A stretch of 64,000 bases of DNA from Thermodesulfobacteriota bacterium (GTDB lineage: Bacteria; Desulfobacterota; Binatia; Bin18). The notes under the pieces were generated by a model, which was not told where the DNA came from, made no database searches, and saw nothing but the letters and a program-made list of their open reading frames with translations. A program made the translations under genes and the position numbers. Within the stretch, counting starts at the first letter, position 1; each line of letters begins with the position of its first letter. Below, piece by piece: positions 51,756-61,370 of the stretch. The stretch lies in the NCBI GenBank assembly GCA_964291405.2, contig OZ219926.1, forward strand, positions 1,728,001 to 1,792,000. The letters are read 5' to 3'.

Positions 51756-52238
51756 TCATTCGCTTTGGTCCCGTAACCGCTTGGCCGCTTCCACGATGCT
51801 CACATAGCCGGTGCAGCGGCAGATATGCCCGCCCAGCGTCTCGTGGATATCCCGGTCCAAGATCGGCTCCGGCGCGCTTTCCAGGAGATGATACAGGCTG
51901 AGGGTGAAGCCGGCCGTGCAAAAGCCGCACTGCATGGCAAACTGCTCAACAAAAGCCTGCCCGATCGTTTTTCCACGCTCGGTTTGCATGATCCCTTCAA
52001 GCGTGGTGATTTCATGGTCCGCCACCTGTGCTGCCAAACGCAGACAGGAACGAACGGGCAGGCCATCGAGTAGCACCGTACAGGCGCCACACACCCCATG
52101 CTCACACCCTAGATGCACACTCGTGCAGCCCGCCTCTTCGCGTAGAAAGTCAGCCAGCGTAGTGCGGACGTCGACCAGCGCTTCCACTGGCGTGCCGTTG
52201 ACCGCGGTCGTCACGATGGTTCGACGTTGAGGCTGCAC
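51756..52238 (-). CDS. hmfC: 2Fe-2S subunit (CoxS/HmfC-like)
   Basis: GCEHGVCGACT, QCGFCT and ICRCTGY. Confidence 0.8.
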   Translation of the reverse strand: MQPQRRTIVTTAVNGTPVEALVDVRTTLADFLREEAGCTSVHLGCEHGVCGACTVLLDGLPVRSCLRLAAQVADHEITTLEGIMQTERGKTIGQAFVEQFAMQCGFCTAGFTLSLYHLLESAPEPILDRDIHETLGGHICRCTGYVSIVEAAKRLRDQSE

Positions 52239-53129
52239 TTATGCGCTCCCAGCCGCGTTCTCTCTTTTCCCGTTCCACATGGCAACCGCATCCAGGCAGG
52301 CGCGCTTGACCATCACCCGAGCGAGTTGCTTCCGATACCCGGCAGAGGCATGCAGGTCGGCGTGACAGTCGAGCCCGGCGACCGCCGCTGCCGCGACCGC
52401 ATCGGCTTGGCCGTCAGACAGAGCCTGCTGTGTCAGCACGGCTTCAGCCTGCGCGACCCGGAGCGGTCGGTCTTCCACCCCAAACAGGACGACTCGGCTG
52501 TTTGCCAAACGGTCCGCCTCCAGCTCAGCCAGTACTATCGCGCCGGCCAGAGCAAAATCTCCCGCCCGCCGGGTATACTCCCGGACCCCCCACACCACGT
52601 TCTTGCGGATGGGGATACGGACTTCGGTCAGCAGTTCGCCGGACCGGACATCCGCGCTCAGAGGGCCCTGAAAAAAATCAACCGCTGGAATAGAACGCGC
52701 ACCGGACGGTCCGACGACACACAGTTCCGCCCCCAGCGCGCACATGGCCGCCGGCAGTTCTGCGGCCGGGTCGGCGTGAGCCAGACTCCCCCCAATTGTT
52801 CCCGCGTAACGAATGGGCGGATGACCGATCAGGCGCGTGGCCGCAGCCAAAACGGGAACGGTCTGCCGAATACGCATGTCCCGTTCGAGCCGGGACTGCC
52901 GGGTGAGTGCGCCAATATGCAGGTACTCACCCTCCTGGCGGATATAGCTCAACTCGTCCAGGCCGTTAATGTCCACAATAATGCCGGGGGTTGCCAGCCG
53001 CATATTGAGGAGCGGCATCAGACTCTGTCCGCCGGCGAGAATCTTGGCCTCATCGCCGTACTGAACCAGGGCCGCCATTGCCTGTTCGACTGACTCCGGG
53101 GCAATATACTCAAAAGGGGCAGGCTTCAT
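52239..53129 (-). CDS. hmfB: FAD-binding subunit (CoxM/HmfB-like)
   Basis: MKPAPFEY, LAGGQSLMP and GTIGGSLAHADPAAE. Confidence 0.8.
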   Translation of the reverse strand: MKPAPFEYIAPESVEQAMAALVQYGDEAKILAGGQSLMPLLNMRLATPGIIVDINGLDELSYIRQEGEYLHIGALTRQSRLERDMRIRQTVPVLAAATRLIGHPPIRYAGTIGGSLAHADPAAELPAAMCALGAELCVVGPSGARSIPAVDFFQGPLSADVRSGELLTEVRIPIRKNVVWGVREYTRRAGDFALAGAIVLAELEADRLANSRVVLFGVEDRPLRVAQAEAVLTQQALSDGQADAVAAAAVAGLDCHADLHASAGYRKQLARVMVKRACLDAVAMWNGKRENAAGSA

Positions 53130-53371
53130 GCGTCGTCCTTAACAGCCGGAGAAAGATATCGTCTGCGAACCCGCCTCTCCAACCTCGCGCGGGACTATAC
53201 TACGGATGGAATAGCCAGTCCAGGAAGTCGGGTGGTTGCGTCACCACACACGCTTGGCCTTCCAGCAGAGCGTTCCGCTCAGGCCCCCAGCGTTTCTCCC
53301 GTTGACCTACCCCCGGACAATCCATATGGATGGGAGAGCTAACGTCATTCTTTGCTGAAAGGAGTATGCGT

Positions 53372-54046
53372 ATGAGTGGTCAAGAAGCCGGGCTCAACAA
53401 CGAGCTCAAGCAGCAAATCGCAGCTTTCCAAAAGGAAATGCTGCCAAAAATTCCGCCGGCGATTCGTGAGGTGCTGGTCCGCACCACAGAGGATCAGGTG
53501 AAATCCGGCATCGCAGACAAAGCCCTGAAGGTCGGAGACAAAGCCCCCGACTTTACCCTGCCCAACGCCCGTGGCGAGGCGGTGACGCTGTCACAGCTCC
53601 TGGCCAAAGGACCGGCGGTCATTGCCTTTTATCGAGGCGCGTGGTGACCCTACTGCAACCTGCAGTTGCAGGCATATCAAAATCGTCTGGCCGAGATGCA
53701 GGCGCAGGGCGCCTCCCTGATCGCCATCTCGCCCCAAACCCCGGATAAATCGCTGACAGTTGCCGAAAAGAATGCGCTTCAGTTTGAGGTGCTCAGCGAC
53801 GCTGGCAATAGCGTCGCACGGCAGTTCGGGCTGGCCTTCCAATTTGTCGATGAGCTTCGGGAGACCTTCGAGAAAATGGGCATCCAACTGCCCGAATACA
53901 ACGGCGATGACGCCTGGGAACTGCCGATACCCGGCACCTATGTCATTGACCGGGACGGAACCATTCGGCTGGCCTATATCGATGCAAACTACACCACCCG
54001 GCTTGAACCGGGTGATATTGTTGAGAGTCTGCAAGGACTGAACTAG
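53372..54046 (+). CDS. Peroxiredoxin-like AhpC/TSA selenoprotein (UxxC); TGA 53645-53647 read as Sec
   Basis: ORFs 53330-53647 and 53666-54046 share a frame: FYRGAW-U-PYCNLQLQAYQ. SECIS-like hairpin at 53659-53672. Confidence 0.88.
53659..53672 (+). promoter_or_regulatory. Bacterial SECIS-like hairpin
   Basis: CCUGC-AGUU-GCAGG; loop begins 16 nt after UGA with G at loop position 2. Confidence 0.6.
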
Positions 54047-55242: not shown

Positions 55243-56928
55243 TCACGCCACCACGTTCGAGCGCAGCACGCGGCCGGACAGCGGGCCGGTCTGCTGCCCG
55301 TCTGAGAACAGTACCTGTCCGTTCAGGATCGTATGCGCGATTCCGGTCGACTTTTCGATATAGCGCAGTCCTCCACCGGGGAAATCGTGCACCGGCTCCT
55401 GTTTGCCGCAGTTGACGCTCTCTGGGTCGAAGACCACTAAGTCGGCGATCATGCCCGCAGCGACCGTCCCGCGCAGTGGAACGCCAAAGACCTGAGCGGG
55501 CACGGACGTCAACTTACGGATAGCCTCTTCAAGCGACAACATCTGTTTGTCGCGTACCAGCGTTCCGATCAGATAGGTCGAGTAGCCCGCCTCACAGCGC
55601 ATATCGGCGTGTGCCCCACCATCGGACAAACCGACCAGTGTATGCGGATGGGTGAGCATGTCTCTATTGACCTCTCCGAACTCGTACAAGAACTGCATGT
55701 CCAGATCGTCGTTGAGGGCCAGCTCGAAAAACAGCTCAAGCGGGTCTTTCCCTCGCTCGCGGCTCAGGCTGGCCAGGCTCTTGTCCAGCAGGGGTTGCAG
55801 CTCCGGCTTGTTGACCGTGAACACGCTCAGCTGCTCCCACTGTCCGGTAAAAATACGCGGCTGTTTCAGCTCTGCACGAAACGCGGCCCGAAAGGCAGGG
55901 TCGGCACATATACGCTGCTGCTCGTCCAAGGGTCGGTCGAAGATCGGCTTCCAGCAATCGAAATTGCCAAAGATAAACGGGCGCTTCAGACTGAAGCGGG
56001 CACTCTTGTAATGGCACGGCACCTGCCCCAGCGGCAGATAGCCCCGATCAAACAACGGCACCACCCGATTGACAGCGGCCTGCCAGGCGTCGGGGGGCGC
56101 TTCCGGCTTTTGCAGCAGCCCCAGCCACGTCACCGGCCGTTCACTGTGTAGCAGCAAAAAGGTCAGCAGGTCATACTCCTCATCAGACAAGAACCCGGGG
56201 CTCCGCGTGAGCGCAATCTCGATACTCCCCCGACCGAGTTTTTTGAGCACGCCGGATAAGGCCCCCAATTCGTCGCGACTGGCCATCCGGCTCGGCAGCG
56301 GTCGGCCTTGAAACCCAAGGTGCTGGGGGAGGACGGTTGTGGAAAAACCAAATGCGCCAGCGTCCATAGCCGCCTGGAAGAGCCCGCTGAGTTGTCGAAT
56401 CTCGGACTCCGTTGCCGCCCGCTCCTTGCTCTCCTCTCCGAGCACATACTGGCGCAACGGCGAGAGCGGCAGCATCATACCGACATTCATGCCTAGCCCG
56501 CGCTGGCCGATTGTGTTGAGGTATTCGTCAAAGCCCTGCCAGGACCAGTCAACCCCGCGTTGCAGAACTTCCAGGGACATGCCCTCGACGTTGACCAGAT
56601 CGCCCACAAGGGCTTCCCGGTCGGCAGGCTTGCACGGAGCAAGACCGACCCCACAGTTGCCCATGATAATAGAAGTCACACCGTGCCAGGACGAACACGT
56701 TGCCAGCGGGTCCCAGAGAATCTGGGCGTCGTAATGGGTGTGATGGTCGATAAATCCTGGGCATACGATCAGCCCACCAATGTCGAGGCTGGAGACTGCC
56801 TCGTGTGACGGAATATTGGCCTCAACCGCCGCAATCCGGTCTCCGCTCAGCGCCACGTCCGCGGCAAACCGCTCCCGTCCGGTTCCGTCGATAACGGTTC
56901 CCCCTTTGAGCACGACATCGTAGGACAT
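55243..56928 (-). CDS. Amidohydrolase, N-acyl-D-amino-acid deacylase family
   Basis: VIDGTG, PGFIDHHTHYDAQ, GNCGVG and SDGGAH. Confidence 0.9.
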   Translation of the reverse strand: MSYDVVLKGGTVIDGTGRERFAADVALSGDRIAAVEANIPSHEAVSSLDIGGLIVCPGFIDHHTHYDAQILWDPLATCSSWHGVTSIIMGNCGVGLAPCKPADREALVGDLVNVEGMSLEVLQRGVDWSWQGFDEYLNTIGQRGLGMNVGMMLPLSPLRQYVLGEESKERAATESEIRQLSGLFQAAMDAGAFGFSTTVLPQHLGFQGRPLPSRMASRDELGALSGVLKKLGRGSIEIALTRSPGFLSDEEYDLLTFLLLHSERPVTWLGLLQKPEAPPDAWQAAVNRVVPLFDRGYLPLGQVPCHYKSARFSLKRPFIFGNFDCWKPIFDRPLDEQQRICADPAFRAAFRAELKQPRIFTGQWEQLSVFTVNKPELQPLLDKSLASLSRERGKDPLELFFELALNDDLDMQFLYEFGEVNRDMLTHPHTLVGLSDGGAHADMRCEAGYSTYLIGTLVRDKQMLSLEEAIRKLTSVPAQVFGVPLRGTVAAGMIADLVVFDPESVNCGKQEPVHDFPGGGLRYIEKSTGIAHTILNGQVLFSDGQQTGPLSGRVLRSNVVA

Positions 56929-56943
56929 GGCTCTCTCCTTTTT

Positions 56944-57411
56944 TCACGGACGAGACGCTTGCTCGGTCTGCGGGCGCTTCTTGATCAAATAGGCGTGCGT
57001 GCCCTCAAGCACGACTTCATCGCGTTGATTGGTGATGCGGGTTTTGAGGCGCAGGACGCCGACCTTAGTCTTGGGAATGAGCTCGCTGACCTCAAGTTCC
57101 GGTCGGATGGTATCGCCAATCAAAACCGGTTTGAGAAACCGGGAAGACTGCTCAAGAAAGACCACCATCGACTCTTCAACCAGCGGCGACAGTTCGGACG
57201 CACCCAGCGCACCCATGGACGTGACCAGCAGGCCGTGCGTGACCCGTTTGCCGAAACGCGTAGCCTTGGCGTACTCGTCGTCATAGTGAATCGAATGGTT
57301 ATCGCCCGTCATGCCGGAGAAGAATAGAAAATGGGCATCGGTCAGGGTCTTGGCCGGCGAGCGAAAAACCTCGCCAACCTCGAAATCTTCAAAGTATTTG
57401 GTGGTTTTCAT
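56944..57411 (-). CDS. MaoC-family dehydratase
   Basis: YFEDFEVGE, TGDNHSIHYD, FGKRVTHG and FLKPVLIGDT. Confidence 0.92.
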   Translation of the reverse strand: MKTTKYFEDFEVGEVFRSPAKTLTDAHFLFFSGMTGDNHSIHYDDEYAKATRFGKRVTHGLLVTSMGALGASELSPLVEESMVVFLEQSSRFLKPVLIGDTIRPELEVSELIPKTKVGVLRLKTRITNQRDEVVLEGTHAYLIKKRPQTEQASRP

Positions 57412-57804
57412 CTATTTCTCATCCAGCACGGCAATCGCATCGATTTCTATGAGCGCTTCCGGGCGCAGCAGCTCTTTGACCACGATCCCGGTTGCTGCGG
57501 GAAACCCGTTCGTAAAGAACTCGCGGCGCACCGCGGCGGTCCCGCGATAGCCTTCCTTGGTGGTGATATAGTCTACGGTCTTTACAATATCGTCGAAGCT
57601 CGCCCCGGCGGCGTCCAGGATCTTGCCGATCTTCTGAAAGATCTCGCGCGTCTGGGTCACGATATCTCCCGCACCAACAATTTCTCCCTTGGCATTAAAC
57701 GCGGTCAGGCCGGAAATAAACAGCAGATTCCCCTTGCGCACGGCGGGCGAGAAGGTATAGCGCTGGTCAAATCCCCAGGGATCAACGATTTCAAGTTTCG
57801 GCAT
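57412..57804 (-). CDS. RidA/YjgF family protein
   Basis: FSPAVRKGNLLFISG and P.AT...V..L....LIEIDAIA. Confidence 0.92.
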   Translation of the reverse strand: MPKLEIVDPWGFDQRYTFSPAVRKGNLLFISGLTAFNAKGEIVGAGDIVTQTREIFQKIGKILDAAGASFDDIVKTVDYITTKEGYRGTAAVRREFFTNGFPAATGIVVKELLRPEALIEIDAIAVLDEK

Positions 57805-57834
57805 AGACTAGTCTCTCCTCTCGTCCGCTCTCGA

Positions 57835-58386
57835 TTACGCCGTAGCGGCAGCGTGCAGATGCGGTCCGTCCAATTCAAGCTGCGCGGCAATCTCGGCTAG
57901 CGCCTCTTCGGCGCGCCCCCGAAAGTCCTCAGGTGTTTCTCCAGCCTTGATGTGCGGAATGACCACAATGGGAATCTCCGGCATGGCCATGGCTTTGGCC
58001 TGGTCTTGAGCCGCCACCAGGAAGGTATCAAACGCCACGACAATGGAACGCACCCCCCGTTTCCACAGTTTCGCTGCGTCGAGCATACAGCCCGACGTAC
58101 ACGACCCTCAGGCACACAGGCCGACAACGGCCTGCTGGGACGCGGCGGCCACCTCGTCCATCAACGCCTCGGGCGAAGGGCGGGTAAACACCGGCTTGCG
58201 CCAGATCGATGCGGCGCTTACAGACGGTTTCGCCTCCAGAAGCTCCTTGAGGCGTTCAAAGAACTTTCCGGCGATCTCGTTGCCAAAGCCATTATTAACC
58301 AATCCGACCACGCGGCCCGCAGCTGTATGATCGATTTTCTTCTCCGCGAACGGTCGTCGGACTCCGACGGGGCTGAGTACCCGCAT
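57835..58386 (-). CDS. UGSC-family selenoprotein; TGA 58110-58108 read as Sec
   Basis: ORFs 58108-58443 and 57835-58086 share a frame: AVVGLCA-U-GSCTSGCMLDAAKL..RGV. SECIS-like hairpin at 58077-58097. Confidence 0.9.
58077..58097 (-). promoter_or_regulatory. Bacterial SECIS-like hairpin
   Basis: Minus strand CGUCGGGC-UGUAU-GCUCGACG; 8-bp stem, loop 18 nt after UGA, GU in the loop. Confidence 0.75.
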
Positions 58387-58394
58387 ATGACACC

Positions 58395-59441
58395 TCACTG
58401 TTGAATTTCCTTGGTCACGGCAAACCCACCGAGTCCACCCCAACCCGGACAGATCGCCGCGAAATACGTTTCGCCTCCGGCAACGACAATATGGATATTC
58501 CGGGGCCGCTCGGTAATGGGTACCCGGTAGTCGTCATTGTCCTTCTCCACCCAACTCGGCCAGAACTGGTCTGATATTCCCAGAGCATCAACTTCTCGGA
58601 TATCCTCCAGTCTGGCCCGAGCGTGCTCCCAGAGATACACCCGAATCTCGGGCTTGGACCAGCCTTCGCGGTGAAACTGCCGCGCCTGCCAGGGATTCAG
58701 CACAACCAAGGTCTCTCCCATGGCCTGGACATTATTACTGCCCAAGCCGCTGAGTGAGCTGACCAGGGAGGCCAGCATCTGTTTGACCGTGCCGTAGCAT
58801 AAGACAGAGTGGGGTGCCTCACAGCTAAACACGGTCACGGCGTTTTTACCGGCTTCGATGCCGCACTCCACGTGTAGCGGCTCCCAGGGGTTTGCCTCTT
58901 CCTTTTCCGCAATGCAGAAACTCCACTTGCCGGGGTGGGCCTGAGTTGACTTATCCACCTCGCCCGGAACGTTCCCACCCAGATTCCAGAGGATCAAACG
59001 GATGGCGCGCCCAATGGTCCCGTTTGCCCGAAAGCCATTACCAAACACTCCATCGCCCGCGTTGAGCTTGAGTTGTGTCGCAATCGGACCATGGACAATG
59101 GTTAAGGGGACACAGCAGTGAGTGGTTGTTTGGACACCGTTCAGGTTGTGCTCGGGCTCCAGCATGGCCTCGACCGCCGCAATGATAACCGGGAAATACT
59201 CGGGCCGGCAGCCGGCCATGACGCTGTTAATCGCCAGCTTCTCAATCGTGGCAATACCTTGGGCCGGCGGAATCTCACCCAGTTCTTCGGTCGACGCGCG
59301 TCCCGAGGCCGCGATCATGGCCGCAACCAATTCTTCGGTCGGCGGAACAATAGCTAAGCCGTCGGTCCAGCCGCGCTCAAAGAACAGTTCGACTGCGGCG
59401 TGGTAGTCGTCAACGTCAATCTGCTCGGATGTGAACTGCAT
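58395..59441 (-). CDS. Conserved hypothetical protein, UGSC-associated partner
   Basis: RGWTDGL.IVPPTE, ATIEKLAINSVMAGCRPEYFPV and RANGTIGRAIRL; a domain that commonly accompanies UGSC proteins. Confidence 0.85.
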   Translation of the reverse strand: MQFTSEQIDVDDYHAAVELFFERGWTDGLAIVPPTEELVAAMIAASGRASTEELGEIPPAQGIATIEKLAINSVMAGCRPEYFPVIIAAVEAMLEPEHNLNGVQTTTHCCVPLTIVHGPIATQLKLNAGDGVFGNGFRANGTIGRAIRLILWNLGGNVPGEVDKSTQAHPGKWSFCIAEKEEANPWEPLHVECGIEAGKNAVTVFSCEAPHSVLCYGTVKQMLASLVSSLSGLGSNNVQAMGETLVVLNPWQARQFHREGWSKPEIRVYLWEHARARLEDIREVDALGISDQFWPSWVEKDNDDYRVPITERPRNIHIVVAGGETYFAAICPGWGGLGGFAVTKEIQQ

Positions 59442-59564
59442 CACCCCTCCAGGCCGTCCTCTGATGTCTACACAGCCTGGAGGGACAGCGTCAAGGGTTT
59501 ACACCTGCCTCGCAACTCAAGCCCTTGAAGAATGCTGTTCAGCCTCTAGCGGAAGCGCCTCTGT

Positions 59565-60095
59565 TTACTCGGATTGTGCTCCAACCAAAACGAAAGCCAC
59601 CAGAGCTGGCTCTGCTGAACGATTACTCCAGGCATGATTGGTCGCTCGCTGGATGAGGACATCCCCGGCCTGCATGCAAGTTTCATCTTCTTCCATGACT
59701 GCCCATATCTCACCCGACAGGACGATGGCATAGTCTACTGAGGCAGTTTTATGCATCATCGGGGTCGAGCTAGTGGAATCGGCGGCATGACCCGCCTCCA
59801 TGGAGGAAAAGACTTCGCTCGCATCAGTCCGGTCTTGCCATGCCGCATCAGGTGGAAACTCGACGGCGCGGCAGATTGTCCCGGTCGGCCGAGGTTCCAG
59901 ATGCATAGGACGATCAACAGGGTCGGCATCACCGGACAGGTCAGCAGGCGCAGTTGTCGTCTCCCATAGATCAGTGGCTCGTAGTCCTGGCACTGCTTCG
60001 AGATCCAGAATACTCGTGGCAATGGCATCTTCAGCAATGACCGATTTTCCCTTAGCGTTGTGGCCGGTCACAATTCGGCGGATTTGCTTTGGCAT
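59565..60095 (-). CDS. Cupin domain protein
   Basis: RRIVTGHN..GKSV, MHKTASVDYAIVLSGEI and GDVLIQRATNHAWSNR. Confidence 0.92.
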   Translation of the reverse strand: MPKQIRRIVTGHNAKGKSVIAEDAIATSILDLEAVPGLRATDLWETTTAPADLSGDADPVDRPMHLEPRPTGTICRAVEFPPDAAWQDRTDASEVFSSMEAGHAADSTSSTPMMHKTASVDYAIVLSGEIWAVMEEDETCMQAGDVLIQRATNHAWSNRSAEPALVAFVLVGAQSE

Positions 60096-60348
60096 CTCTC
60101 TCCCTCTCATTCATGCTCGGTGTTACTCTTCCTCTCTACGTTCCAAGCTTTCCCGCATCTCCTGCACAGGACCTACATCAAGGAATGTTTATTTGAGTTC
60201 CTGATCTTGTAGCTGATAGGCCACCTCTTCAATAGGTCCAAATGGCATTGCCGTATCTACCCACCCGTACCCATCTCTATTATCCCTTTTACTCACACAG
60301 CTTCCCAATCGCCCGCTAGGTTTTCCATACCAGCGGAGATGCTGTCAA

Positions 60349-60655: not shown

Positions 60656-60991
60656 ATGGCAAAGATCGCTTCGAAAGTCCTCCGTGAGATCGTTCGGCGT
60701 ATTGTCGCCGTTGCCCAGCCGGATCGGATCATCCTATTTGGCTCTGCAGCTCGCGGTGAAATGGGTCCACATAGCGATGTCGATCTTCTTGTGGTCAAGC
60801 AGGGAGAATTCGATCAAGGACAACTCGTCGGCGATCTTTATATGAACCTGCATGGGGTGGGACAGGCGGTAGACCTGGTTGTAGTGACCCCAGAACAAGT
60901 TGAGCGTTATCGAAACACGCATTGTCTTGTCATTGCACCAGCACTACGCCAGGGAAAAGAAATCTACCGTGCCGACACGTTATCCGCCTGA
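60656..60991 (+). CDS. Minimal nucleotidyltransferase (MNT) antitoxin
   Basis: IILFGSAARG....SDVDLLVV. Confidence 0.92.
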   Translation: MAKIASKVLREIVRRIVAVAQPDRIILFGSAARGEMGPHSDVDLLVVKQGEFDQGQLVGDLYMNLHGVGQAVDLVVVTPEQVERYRNTHCLVIAPALRQGKEIYRADTLSA

Positions 60992-61370
60992 AGATCCCCG
61001 CGAATGGCTCAACAGAGCCCGCAGCAACCTCCTCCTGGCAAAAGCCCCCAGGCGCAATATCTATCTGGAGGATTTGTGTTTCAACGCACAGCAAGCCGCG
61101 GAGAAGGCCATTAAAGCTATCCTGATTGCCCATGAAGTCGAGTTTCCGTATGTCCACGATATTACGGAACTCCTCACCACGTTGGAAAAAACGGGACAAA
61201 AAATCCCTCCATCCATCAAACAAGCAGAGCGCCTGACCCGTTTTGCGATTTCCACTCGATACCCTGGGATTGCAAGCACTATTCGGCGTGAAGAATATCA
61301 GGAAACGCTTGCAGTCGCAGAGAAAGTTATCCGCTGGGCAAGGACACTTGTTCGGGAAAAAGTTGGTTGA
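60969..61370 (+). CDS. HEPN domain protein
   Basis: LCFNAQQAAEKAIKA, FPYVHDI and TRYPG; GTG start overlaps the MNT gene. Confidence 0.9.
   Translation: MPTRYPPEDPREWLNRARSNLLLAKAPRRNIYLEDLCFNAQQAAEKAIKAILIAHEVEFPYVHDITELLTTLEKTGQKIPPSIKQAERLTRFAISTRYPGIASTIRREEYQETLAVAEKVIRWARTLVREKVG

Follow-up and report, generated by a model that had tools for sequence, protein, structure and literature searches.

The UGSC-containing protein was described as a selenoprotein family by Zhang and Gladyshev (PMC2398784), who rank it with the most abundant selenoprotein families of the ocean and of freshwater metagenomes and name it the most frequently used family in the non-marine samples of the Global Ocean Sampling (GOS) data. 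Table 2 of the same paper counts 255 selenocysteine (Sec) against 21 cysteine (Cys) forms of UGSC in GOS, and for thioredoxin-like families it lists Cys forms far above Sec forms. The passages on UGSC also guess a thioredoxin-like fold and report a fusion to a conserved domain called 'Unknown_1', which may be the partner protein described below (PMC2398784). A 2026 review still treats UGSC as uncharacterised (PMC13188914). Among the closest described systems is selenoprotein B (GrdB/PrdB) of the clostridial Stickland reductases, which is paired with a second, larger protein. Here we describe a hidden UGSC gene and its neighbours in a window of 64,000 nucleotides from a Thermodesulfobacteriota bacterium of the Binatia (assembly GCA_964291405.2, contig OZ219926.1, positions 1,728,001 to 1,792,000); unless a contig or locus is named, coordinates refer to this window. 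The host genome measures 4.95 Mb and is 97.5% complete. The conserved unit is the pair made of UGSC and the 349-residue protein encoded next to it, and not the five-gene operon in which the pair lies in this genome.

The UGSC gene occupies 57835-58386 on the minus strand. Under translation table 11 this region gives two open reading frames (ORFs), 58108-58443 and 57835-58086, where reading the in-frame TGA codon at 58108-58110 as Sec gives a single protein of 183 residues with the motif CA-U-GSC, in which the selenocysteine (U) is residue 93 and the cysteine of the U-G-S-C core is residue 96. The read-through protein matches the Pfam UGSC family (PF24696) over residues 4-170 with 105.7 bits against a cut-off of 25. 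It reaches 91 bits with the NCBIfam equivalog model NF041046, under the cut-off of 125, which makes it a divergent member of the family. In an alignment of 60 UGSC sequences the columns of U93, G94 and C96 hardly vary, and the Cys-type homologues carry Cys at the U column. Codon 93 is TGA in all 13 orthologues examined (71-98% protein identity), and their substitutions cluster at third codon positions equally on both sides of it. The same genome holds eight UGSC paralogues, each with exactly one in-frame TGA. It also encodes the complete machinery for Sec insertion, with selA at 598, selB at 393, selD at 308 and tRNA-Sec (selC) at 69 bits, all exceeding their cut-offs; the tRNA-Sec gene adjoins selA. 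The selD match (C3:39564-40481) sits in a 759-residue open frame, which suggests a fused SelD; Ndh-SelD fusions are mentioned in PMC2398784.

The window gene is thus a genuine UGSC-family selenoprotein gene, and the two ORFs that the initial annotation had joined through the TGA do form one gene; its suggestions to search the genome for selA, selB, selC and selD and to align the protein with Cys homologues both gave positive results. That the codon instead ends translation, so that the region consists of two small genes or is a pseudogene, is scarcely credible. Gene callers do split the gene, and the 92- and 83-residue halves exist as separate protein-database entries, as that reading would have it, but it is contradicted by the complete Sec machinery, by the single TGA in each of the eight paralogues, by the Cys of the homologues at this column, by the purifying selection on both the TGA and the frame downstream of it in the 13 orthologues, and by the covariation of the RNA element that follows the codon.

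This element, a hairpin of the Sec insertion sequence (SECIS) type, lies at 58077-58097 on the minus strand; it has 8 bp and an apical loop UGUAU and begins 13 nt past the UGA. The initial annotation had called it strong. Its presence was borne out and its strength was not, as the folding energy is by itself unremarkable: z is -2.06 on 66 nt, 6 of 200 shuffled sequences fold equally well, z ranges from -1.74 to +0.15 across the eight paralogues, and mean hairpin energies are similar in Sec forms (-11.8, n=68) and Cys forms (-11.1, n=6). Single-sequence folding energies therefore do not single out the hairpin, and the case for a SECIS rests on covariation. A hairpin with GU in the loop occurs at the same position in the eight paralogues and in 68 Sec-type UGSC genes elsewhere. 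In the alignment of these 76 genes, 85.3% of the pair cells are paired, compared with 76.3 +/- 0.8% in shuffles, and the covariation score is 0.258, compared with 0.113; neither value was reached by any of 500 shuffles. Related sequences may beat shuffles without any structure, a caveat that is answered by slid controls, which gave at most 50.5% paired cells and a covariation score of 0.119, and by the swap of the loop-closing pair, which is CG in 46 genes and GC in 27. We also observed that the GU of the SECIS loop comes from the codon seven residues past Sec (58087-58089). Most Sec forms have AGT (Ser) there, the window gene has TGT (Cys) and five of the six Cys forms have TGC (Cys), so that the RNA element seems to dictate the loop codon and, for most genes, also the residue that it encodes.

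Only 8 nt upstream of the UGSC gene, on the same strand, lies the gene for the partner protein (58395-59444, 349 residues), and the GAGG Shine-Dalgarno sequence for UGSC (58393-58396) overlaps the stop codon of the partner. The genome encodes eight partner paralogues with 32-48% identity, and all eight adjoin a UGSC gene. One of these pairs is a natural Sec-type fusion, a single frame of 567 codons on the plus strand (L044:6971-8671) with UGSC at the N terminus and the partner at the C terminus; this gene is flanked by an amidase gene and a sodium:solute symporter gene.

The pairing extends far beyond this genome. The partner belongs to a large family, with 6526 clusters matching at E<=1e-3 among 8000 scored candidates, all of them unnamed and none with a Pfam domain. 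When one genome per species was scanned, relatives of the partner were found in 597 of 600 candidate stretches, and we kept 80 loci, which are labelled as Dehalococcoidia, Methylomirabilota, Binatia, Burkholderiales, Alphaproteobacteria, Acidobacteriota and Bacillota and include two archaeal records. These loci were searched in six frames, with TGA read through, using a hidden Markov model (HMM) built from the eight UGSC paralogues. A UGSC match was present in 72 of the 80 loci and reached at least 80 bits in 71. The remaining eight loci gave no match even at E<=10; four of them have short flanks. Of the 79 UGSC matches with at least 80 bits, 77 lie no more than 1.5 kb from a partner gene on the same strand, with the partner first in 40 pairs, UGSC first as a separate gene in 27, and the two fused in frame in 10. 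Nine of these fusions are of the Sec type and one is of the Cys type; L123 was not counted, as its sole TGA is the stop codon of a Cys-type gene. Overall, Sec forms outnumber Cys forms among the loci by 68 to 6.

Full-length Cys-type fusions of 485-560 residues came out of an exhaustive search of representative proteins (P0156, P0204, P0206, P0230, P0236 and P0263, with P0245 apparently truncated). A word-index search for longer relatives of UGSC had missed such fusions, which is a limit of that method, since the exhaustive search found them. Cys-type pairs also occur in records named Natrialba asiatica, Candidimonas nitroreducens and Parapusillimonas granuli. In the ESM Atlas we found only clusters of the partner family, plus clusters in which a minority of members (16-41%) carry a UGSC domain; the automatic names given there, 'thioredoxin family' and 'thiol-disulfide oxidoreductase', were not taken as evidence. 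Two further arrangements were seen among the loci: a Chloroflexi record (L109, 3305-8612) carries three Sec-type UGSC::partner fusion genes in tandem, and in two loci a gene that, by its N-terminal sequence, is a putative SelB-like GTPase gene directly follows the pair (L117:1948-3870).

We then modelled the complex. The natural Cys-type fusion P0156, a homologue of the window pair, was cut into its two domains, and the model was computed with our own alignments, made of the search results plus the window partner. The complex score was 0.81, compared with 0.00 for the best of three controls; among solved complexes 58 of 80 come up to that mark, and among mismatched pairs 2 of 110, which are rough counts since the alignments were our own. 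The runs share at least 87% of their contacts, and the predicted local distance difference test (pLDDT) value of the partner chain is at least 84. In the confident part of the predicted interface, the N-terminal tail of UGSC, which includes an invariant Pro, docks on the conserved N-terminal GW..PPT motif of the partner, the helix that follows it and the region of L150 and N154. The model supports binding between the two proteins of the homologous pair; as it is built on a homologous fusion, it gives no interface for the window's own pair and says nothing on catalysis. Taken with the eight pairs of the host genome, the 71 of 80 loci and the fusions, it agrees with the suggestion of the initial annotation that the partner and UGSC form one unit.

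The UGSC protein was modelled with AlphaFold2 (AF2) at a pLDDT of 91.3. The predicted structure consists of five alternating strand-helix units in a flavodoxin-like order, with U93 between the third strand and its helix, and seems not to fit the thioredoxin-like fold guessed in 2008; the read-through protein matches no thioredoxin family in Pfam. Structural matches of the model are generic, i.e., flavodoxin-like, CheY-like and binding-protein-like (best Z of 12.0, with 2721 chains at Z>=5), and fold searches with it turned up no solved structure that is specifically related. PDB sequences searched by profile with our alignments A1, A2 and A3 returned nothing meaningful, and no solved GrdB/PrdB chain was found in this way.

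The relation to selenoprotein B emerges from the segment around Sec. The read-through protein has no match to the Pfam GRDB domain (PF07355) at E<=0.01, and this Pfam model stops just before Sec, so that Pfam cannot reveal the relation; we therefore collected read-through genes instead, which gave a set of 29 GrdB/PrdB-like sequences from a sample of the phylum and from the host genome. The GRDB family is present in 46 of the 151 genomes sampled from the phylum. When 60 UGSC sequences were aligned to these 29 with hhalign, the probability was 93.3% (E of 2.8e-7 over 87 columns), with UGSC residues 80-183 falling on the part of GrdB that surrounds and follows Sec. U is matched to U, C to C, and the G-V-P-T and P-H-P elements are aligned as well; negative controls gave 0.1-0.8%. 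An HMM of the GrdB/PrdB Sec module found 56 of the 60 aligned UGSC sequences at E<1. It also found five of 858 neighbouring ORFs at E<1, all of which overlap UGSC genes, and no true decoy. Judged by these alignments, the second half of UGSC, which comprises the strand that precedes Sec, the U-G-S-C motif, the next helix, the G-V-P strand and the P-H-P turn, shares its ancestry with the Sec-bearing module of selenoprotein B. The resemblance of the U-G-S-C segment to GrdB/PrdB, on which the initial annotation had built its mechanism, is thus real at the level of the family, where the module HMM ranks UGSC first. Two orphan PrdB-like selenoproteins, U198 and U212, were seen in the host genome at L125:1084-2133 on the minus strand and L126:1261-2634 on the plus strand, with the motifs V-U-P-V-C and V-U-P-L-C.

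The partner protein has no Pfam match even at E<=1 and no NCBIfam match at E<=0.01. Its invariant residues in alignment A1 include D28, G29, P35, C79, T108, R139, N141, R146 and E180, and just one of its Cys residues is invariant in this alignment, with another nearly so. The AF2 model is confident (pLDDT of 89.4, predicted template modelling score of 0.90), and fold searches with it gave no clear solved relative: the best VIA-align match has a Z of 5.9 over 76 residues of the C-terminal subdomain. The top Foldseek matches are class I fumarate hydratases, with 7xky_A at an E of 1.6e-4 and a probability of 0.97, together with a TM-score of 0.29 and a root-mean-square deviation (rmsd) of 15.7; VIA-align gave a Z of 4.0 for 6mso_A (193 residues, rmsd of 5.6) and of 3.9 for 7xky_A (182 residues, rmsd of 4.9). 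Against the Fumerase domain (PF05681), hhalign returned a probability of 0.14%. A partner of the GrdE/PrdA type, i.e., a pyruvoyl proprotein, is contradicted by a probability of 0.2% against a GrdE alignment and by the genome, which at 97.5% completeness contains no match to the GrdE/PrdA family (PF09338); an hhalign comparison with the N-terminal part of the GrdB alignment was also negative. The partner fills the position that GrdE/PrdA holds in the clostridial reductases and, by profile comparison, appears unrelated to them. In one of the eight loci without UGSC, the partner (L101:5017-7053, plus strand) carries an N-terminal AhpC/Redoxin domain with a CxxC motif in the same frame (38.8 bits, cut-off of 26), and no UGSC gene was found within 6 kb of it.

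With a probability of roughly 0.5, we read the pair as a Sec-dependent reductase of two subunits that is recycled by thiols. UGSC would be the small subunit and the partner the large one. By analogy with selenoprotein B, the selenolate would attack either a substrate or an oxidised group that is bound by the large subunit; the adduct would then be resolved by C96 to give a selenenylsulfide, and a thiol system such as thioredoxin would reduce it again. This reductase reading draws on the homology of the Sec module, on the strong preference for Sec and on the thioredoxin-fold fusion in L101. Because the window paralogue is set among RidA, MaoC and amidohydrolase genes, its substrate may plausibly derive from an amide or N-acyl compound. 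More tentatively, the family may represent a new class of Sec-dependent reductases that shares only the Sec module with the selenoprotein B of Stickland reductases and combines it with an unrelated, non-pyruvoyl substrate-binding subunit. Within the sponge-associated bacterium this class would have radiated into eight enzymes, each with its own substrate, for the reductive cleavage of C-N, C-O or C-S bonds in small carboxylates or in compounds derived from amides, and they would act outside strictly fermentative metabolism; we give this proposal less credence than the reductase reading itself.

Several observations weigh against the pair being such a reductase. Some UGSC variants have no second Cys (U-G-S-S in L072, L093 and L095, U-G-T-S in L062 and C-G-T-S in L083), so that an intramolecular selenenylsulfide cannot be universal. 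Cys79 of the partner is missing in the fused proteins P0204 and P0236. In the complex model, which is that of a homologue and not of the window proteins, the CGSC motif lies outside the confident contacts. The window UGSC is itself divergent, with 98 bits against 150-176 for six of its seven paralogues and 95 for the fused copy, and with the GrdB-module HMM it reaches only 7.8 bits (E of 0.19), so that the homology of the Sec module holds for the UGSC family. No electron donor is encoded in the operon, no third gene is common to the 80 loci (858 neighbouring ORFs were clustered), and the eight pairs of the host genome all differ in their neighbouring genes. Finally, the relevant ones among 17 papers that mention UGSC are selenoproteome catalogues, with no biochemical data for either family.

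In the window, the pair heads a run of five minus-strand genes. Downstream of UGSC follow genes for a Rid/YjgF-family protein (57412-57804, 130 residues; PF01042, 87.3 bits, cut-off of 27.3), a MaoC-like hot-dog hydratase/dehydratase (56944-57411, 155 residues; PF01575, 67.4 bits) and, as the final gene of the unit, an Amidohydro_3-type amidohydrolase (55243-56928, 561 residues; PF07969, 87.7 bits). The gaps between the five ORFs are 8, 30, 0 and 15 nt, in line with the spacing of 0-30 bp reported in the initial annotation. The Rid protein reaches 68 bits with its best NCBIfam model, TIGR00004, under the cut-off of 106, and is therefore a member of the Rid family that is not shown to be RidA proper; the best NCBIfam model of the amidohydrolase, NF006560, gives 90.6 bits against a cut-off of 340. 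A gene for a cupin-like protein (59565-60110, minus strand, 181 residues; Cupin_2 at 24.6 bits, under the cut-off of 27.2) lies 120 nt upstream of the partner gene and may be a sixth gene of the unit. At the other end, the amidohydrolase gene converges on a plus-strand gene for a pyridoxal phosphate (PLP) enzyme of the PALP family.

At least nine genomes of the genus share the whole 4.2 kb at 91-96% identity, and the segment that runs from MaoC to the partner remains unbroken, at 71-79% identity, out to another family of that order. Among the 80 pair loci, homologues of the window genes are rare (Rid in three, MaoC in two, amidohydrolase in three, cupin in one and the PLP enzyme in none), and the commonest neighbour is a luciferase-like monooxygenase, present in 10 loci. 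The other seven pairs of the host genome lie beside genes for major facilitator superfamily transporters, a PLP decarboxylase, cyclases, Amidohydro_2 enzymes, luciferase-like monooxygenases, an amidase, an SSF transporter and an SGL lactonase. For one paralogue, then, RidA, MaoC and the amidohydrolase form a lineage-specific setting that holds within the genus and order.

These counts bear directly on the proposal of the initial annotation, namely a reductive C-N cleavage of the GrdB/PrdB type in one nitrogen-releasing pathway whose other members would be the deacylase, the MaoC dehydratase and a RidA that removes imines. It is favoured by the Sec-module homology to GrdB/PrdB, by the tight spacing of the five genes and by the conservation of the 4.2 kb in the genus and of the MaoC-to-partner stretch across the order, and an imine or enamine intermediate would suit a Rid protein. 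However, the genome lacks GrdE/PrdA, the partner is unrelated to these by profile, no pyruvoyl-forming site is shown, the Rid, MaoC and amidohydrolase homologues accompany the pair in only 3, 2 and 3 of 80 loci, and the other seven pairs of the genome stand beside quite different genes. We consider C-N cleavage in such a pathway quite improbable: the analysis does not support it for the pair, and the co-occurrence on which the pathway was drawn is limited to the genus and order. Alternatively, UGSC may be a dedicated redox carrier, a thioredoxin-like electron donor on a different fold that reduces or activates the partner, with the partner carrying out all of the chemistry at C79, T108, H109, R139, N141, R146 and E180. 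The predicted position of UxxC at the start of a helix suits a carrier, the complex model seems to tether UGSC by its N-terminal tail and not by the motif, and in L101, where UGSC is missing, a thioredoxin-fold CxxC domain is fused to the partner. We nevertheless regard a mere carrier as unlikely, as the strong preference for Sec over Cys is unusual in simple disulfide carriers, Sec variants without a second Cys exist, and the Sec module is homologous to that of selenoprotein B, in which Sec acts on the substrate itself.

The variants without a resolving Cys would be accounted for if Sec or Cys served as a non-redox nucleophile or acid/base and the pair were an isomerase, racemase or hydrolase, like the two-Cys racemases and isomerases built of Rossmann-like domains. 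The geometry would be familiar from enzymes of the Asp/Glu racemase type, whose catalytic Cys lies at a strand-to-helix junction of a Rossmann-like domain, and hydrolases and lactonases predominate among the neighbours of the pairs. Selection of Sec for non-redox roles is rare, the homology is to a reductase module, and the thioredoxin-fold fusion in L101 points to redox chemistry, all of which makes this distinctly unlikely. The structural matches of the partner raise a different prospect, in which U93 and C96 together with Cys79 and Cys177 of the partner bind a metal or an iron-sulfur cluster at the interface of a hydro-lyase like the two-subunit class I fumarate hydratases. These enzymes are the best Foldseek matches of the partner model and reach a Z of 3.9-4.0 in VIA-align, and the split into about 350 and 180 residues, with fused forms, resembles theirs. 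Set against this are the TM-score of 0.29, the Fumerase profile at 0.14%, the lack of any Pfam match at E<=1 and the single invariant and single nearly invariant Cys of the partner, and both kinds of Cys are absent in some members; a metal site is in our view very improbable. The thiol-recycled, Sec-dependent reductase is the reading that we retain.

Contigs from four RNA libraries of four studies map onto the operon. One of 3962 nt spans 56238-60104 and a second bridges the TGA (57869-58203); as these are sequences of relatives, at 90-99% identity, and DNA carry-over is possible, they are no proof of transcription. DNA contigs with half or more of the sampled words came from eleven runs, six of them labelled as sponge metagenomes. 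The window contains a second hidden selenoprotein gene (53330-54046, plus strand, TGA at 53645-53647), which encodes a peroxiredoxin-like (Prx-like) protein of the AhpC/TSA family with 238 residues and the motif W-U-P-Y-C (117.6 bits); a 7-bp hairpin begins 5 nt past its UGA codon, or 8 nt from the first base of the codon, with a z of -0.92. Beside it, at 51756-53129 on the minus strand, are the FAD-binding and 2Fe-2S subunits of a molybdopterin enzyme of the xanthine/CO dehydrogenase type. On the far side of the operon, at 60656-61370 on the plus strand, a minimal nucleotidyltransferase gene (NTP_transf_2, 44.9 bits) precedes and overlaps a HEPN-domain gene (96.8 bits), the usual pair of the MNT-HEPN toxin-antitoxin type.

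A constant and often fused partner, the homology of the Sec module and the Cys-type pairs in records named for cultured organisms open the function of UGSC to experiment. The pairs also matter for annotation, as gene callers split every such gene at the TGA and a genome that carries eight looks as though it lacked them.

Compared with the described UGSC family (PF24696, NF041046), the window protein has the motif at the conserved column, the size and the SECIS, and differs in having P-H-I in place of P-H-P. Thioredoxin-fold selenoproteins (Trx-like and Prx-like) share with UGSC a UxxC redox motif located where a helix begins; UGSC differs from them in its predicted fold, in a far higher environmental Sec:Cys ratio and in its obligate large partner. 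The class I fumarate hydratases and tartrate dehydratases resemble the pair in having large and small subunits and fused forms, and they give the best, though weak, structural match to the partner; on the other hand, there is no sequence or profile signal between them, the TM-score is low and the three conserved Cys ligands are not found in the partner. The orphan PrdB-like selenoproteins U198 and U212 of the host genome have the same type of Sec module and, like UGSC, stand without PrdA; unlike UGSC, they include the C-terminal part of the GRDB domain, and no gene of the partner family adjoins theirs. Selenoprotein B itself shares with UGSC the strand, the U-x-x-C motif, the helix, the E..G-I-P-T element and the P-H-P turn, and both are Sec-preferring proteins paired with a second, larger protein. 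In place of the GRDB domain, however, UGSC has an N-terminal half of its own and a predicted docking tail, and, in contrast to selenoprotein B, it is found across many non-clostridial phyla as well as in archaeal records.

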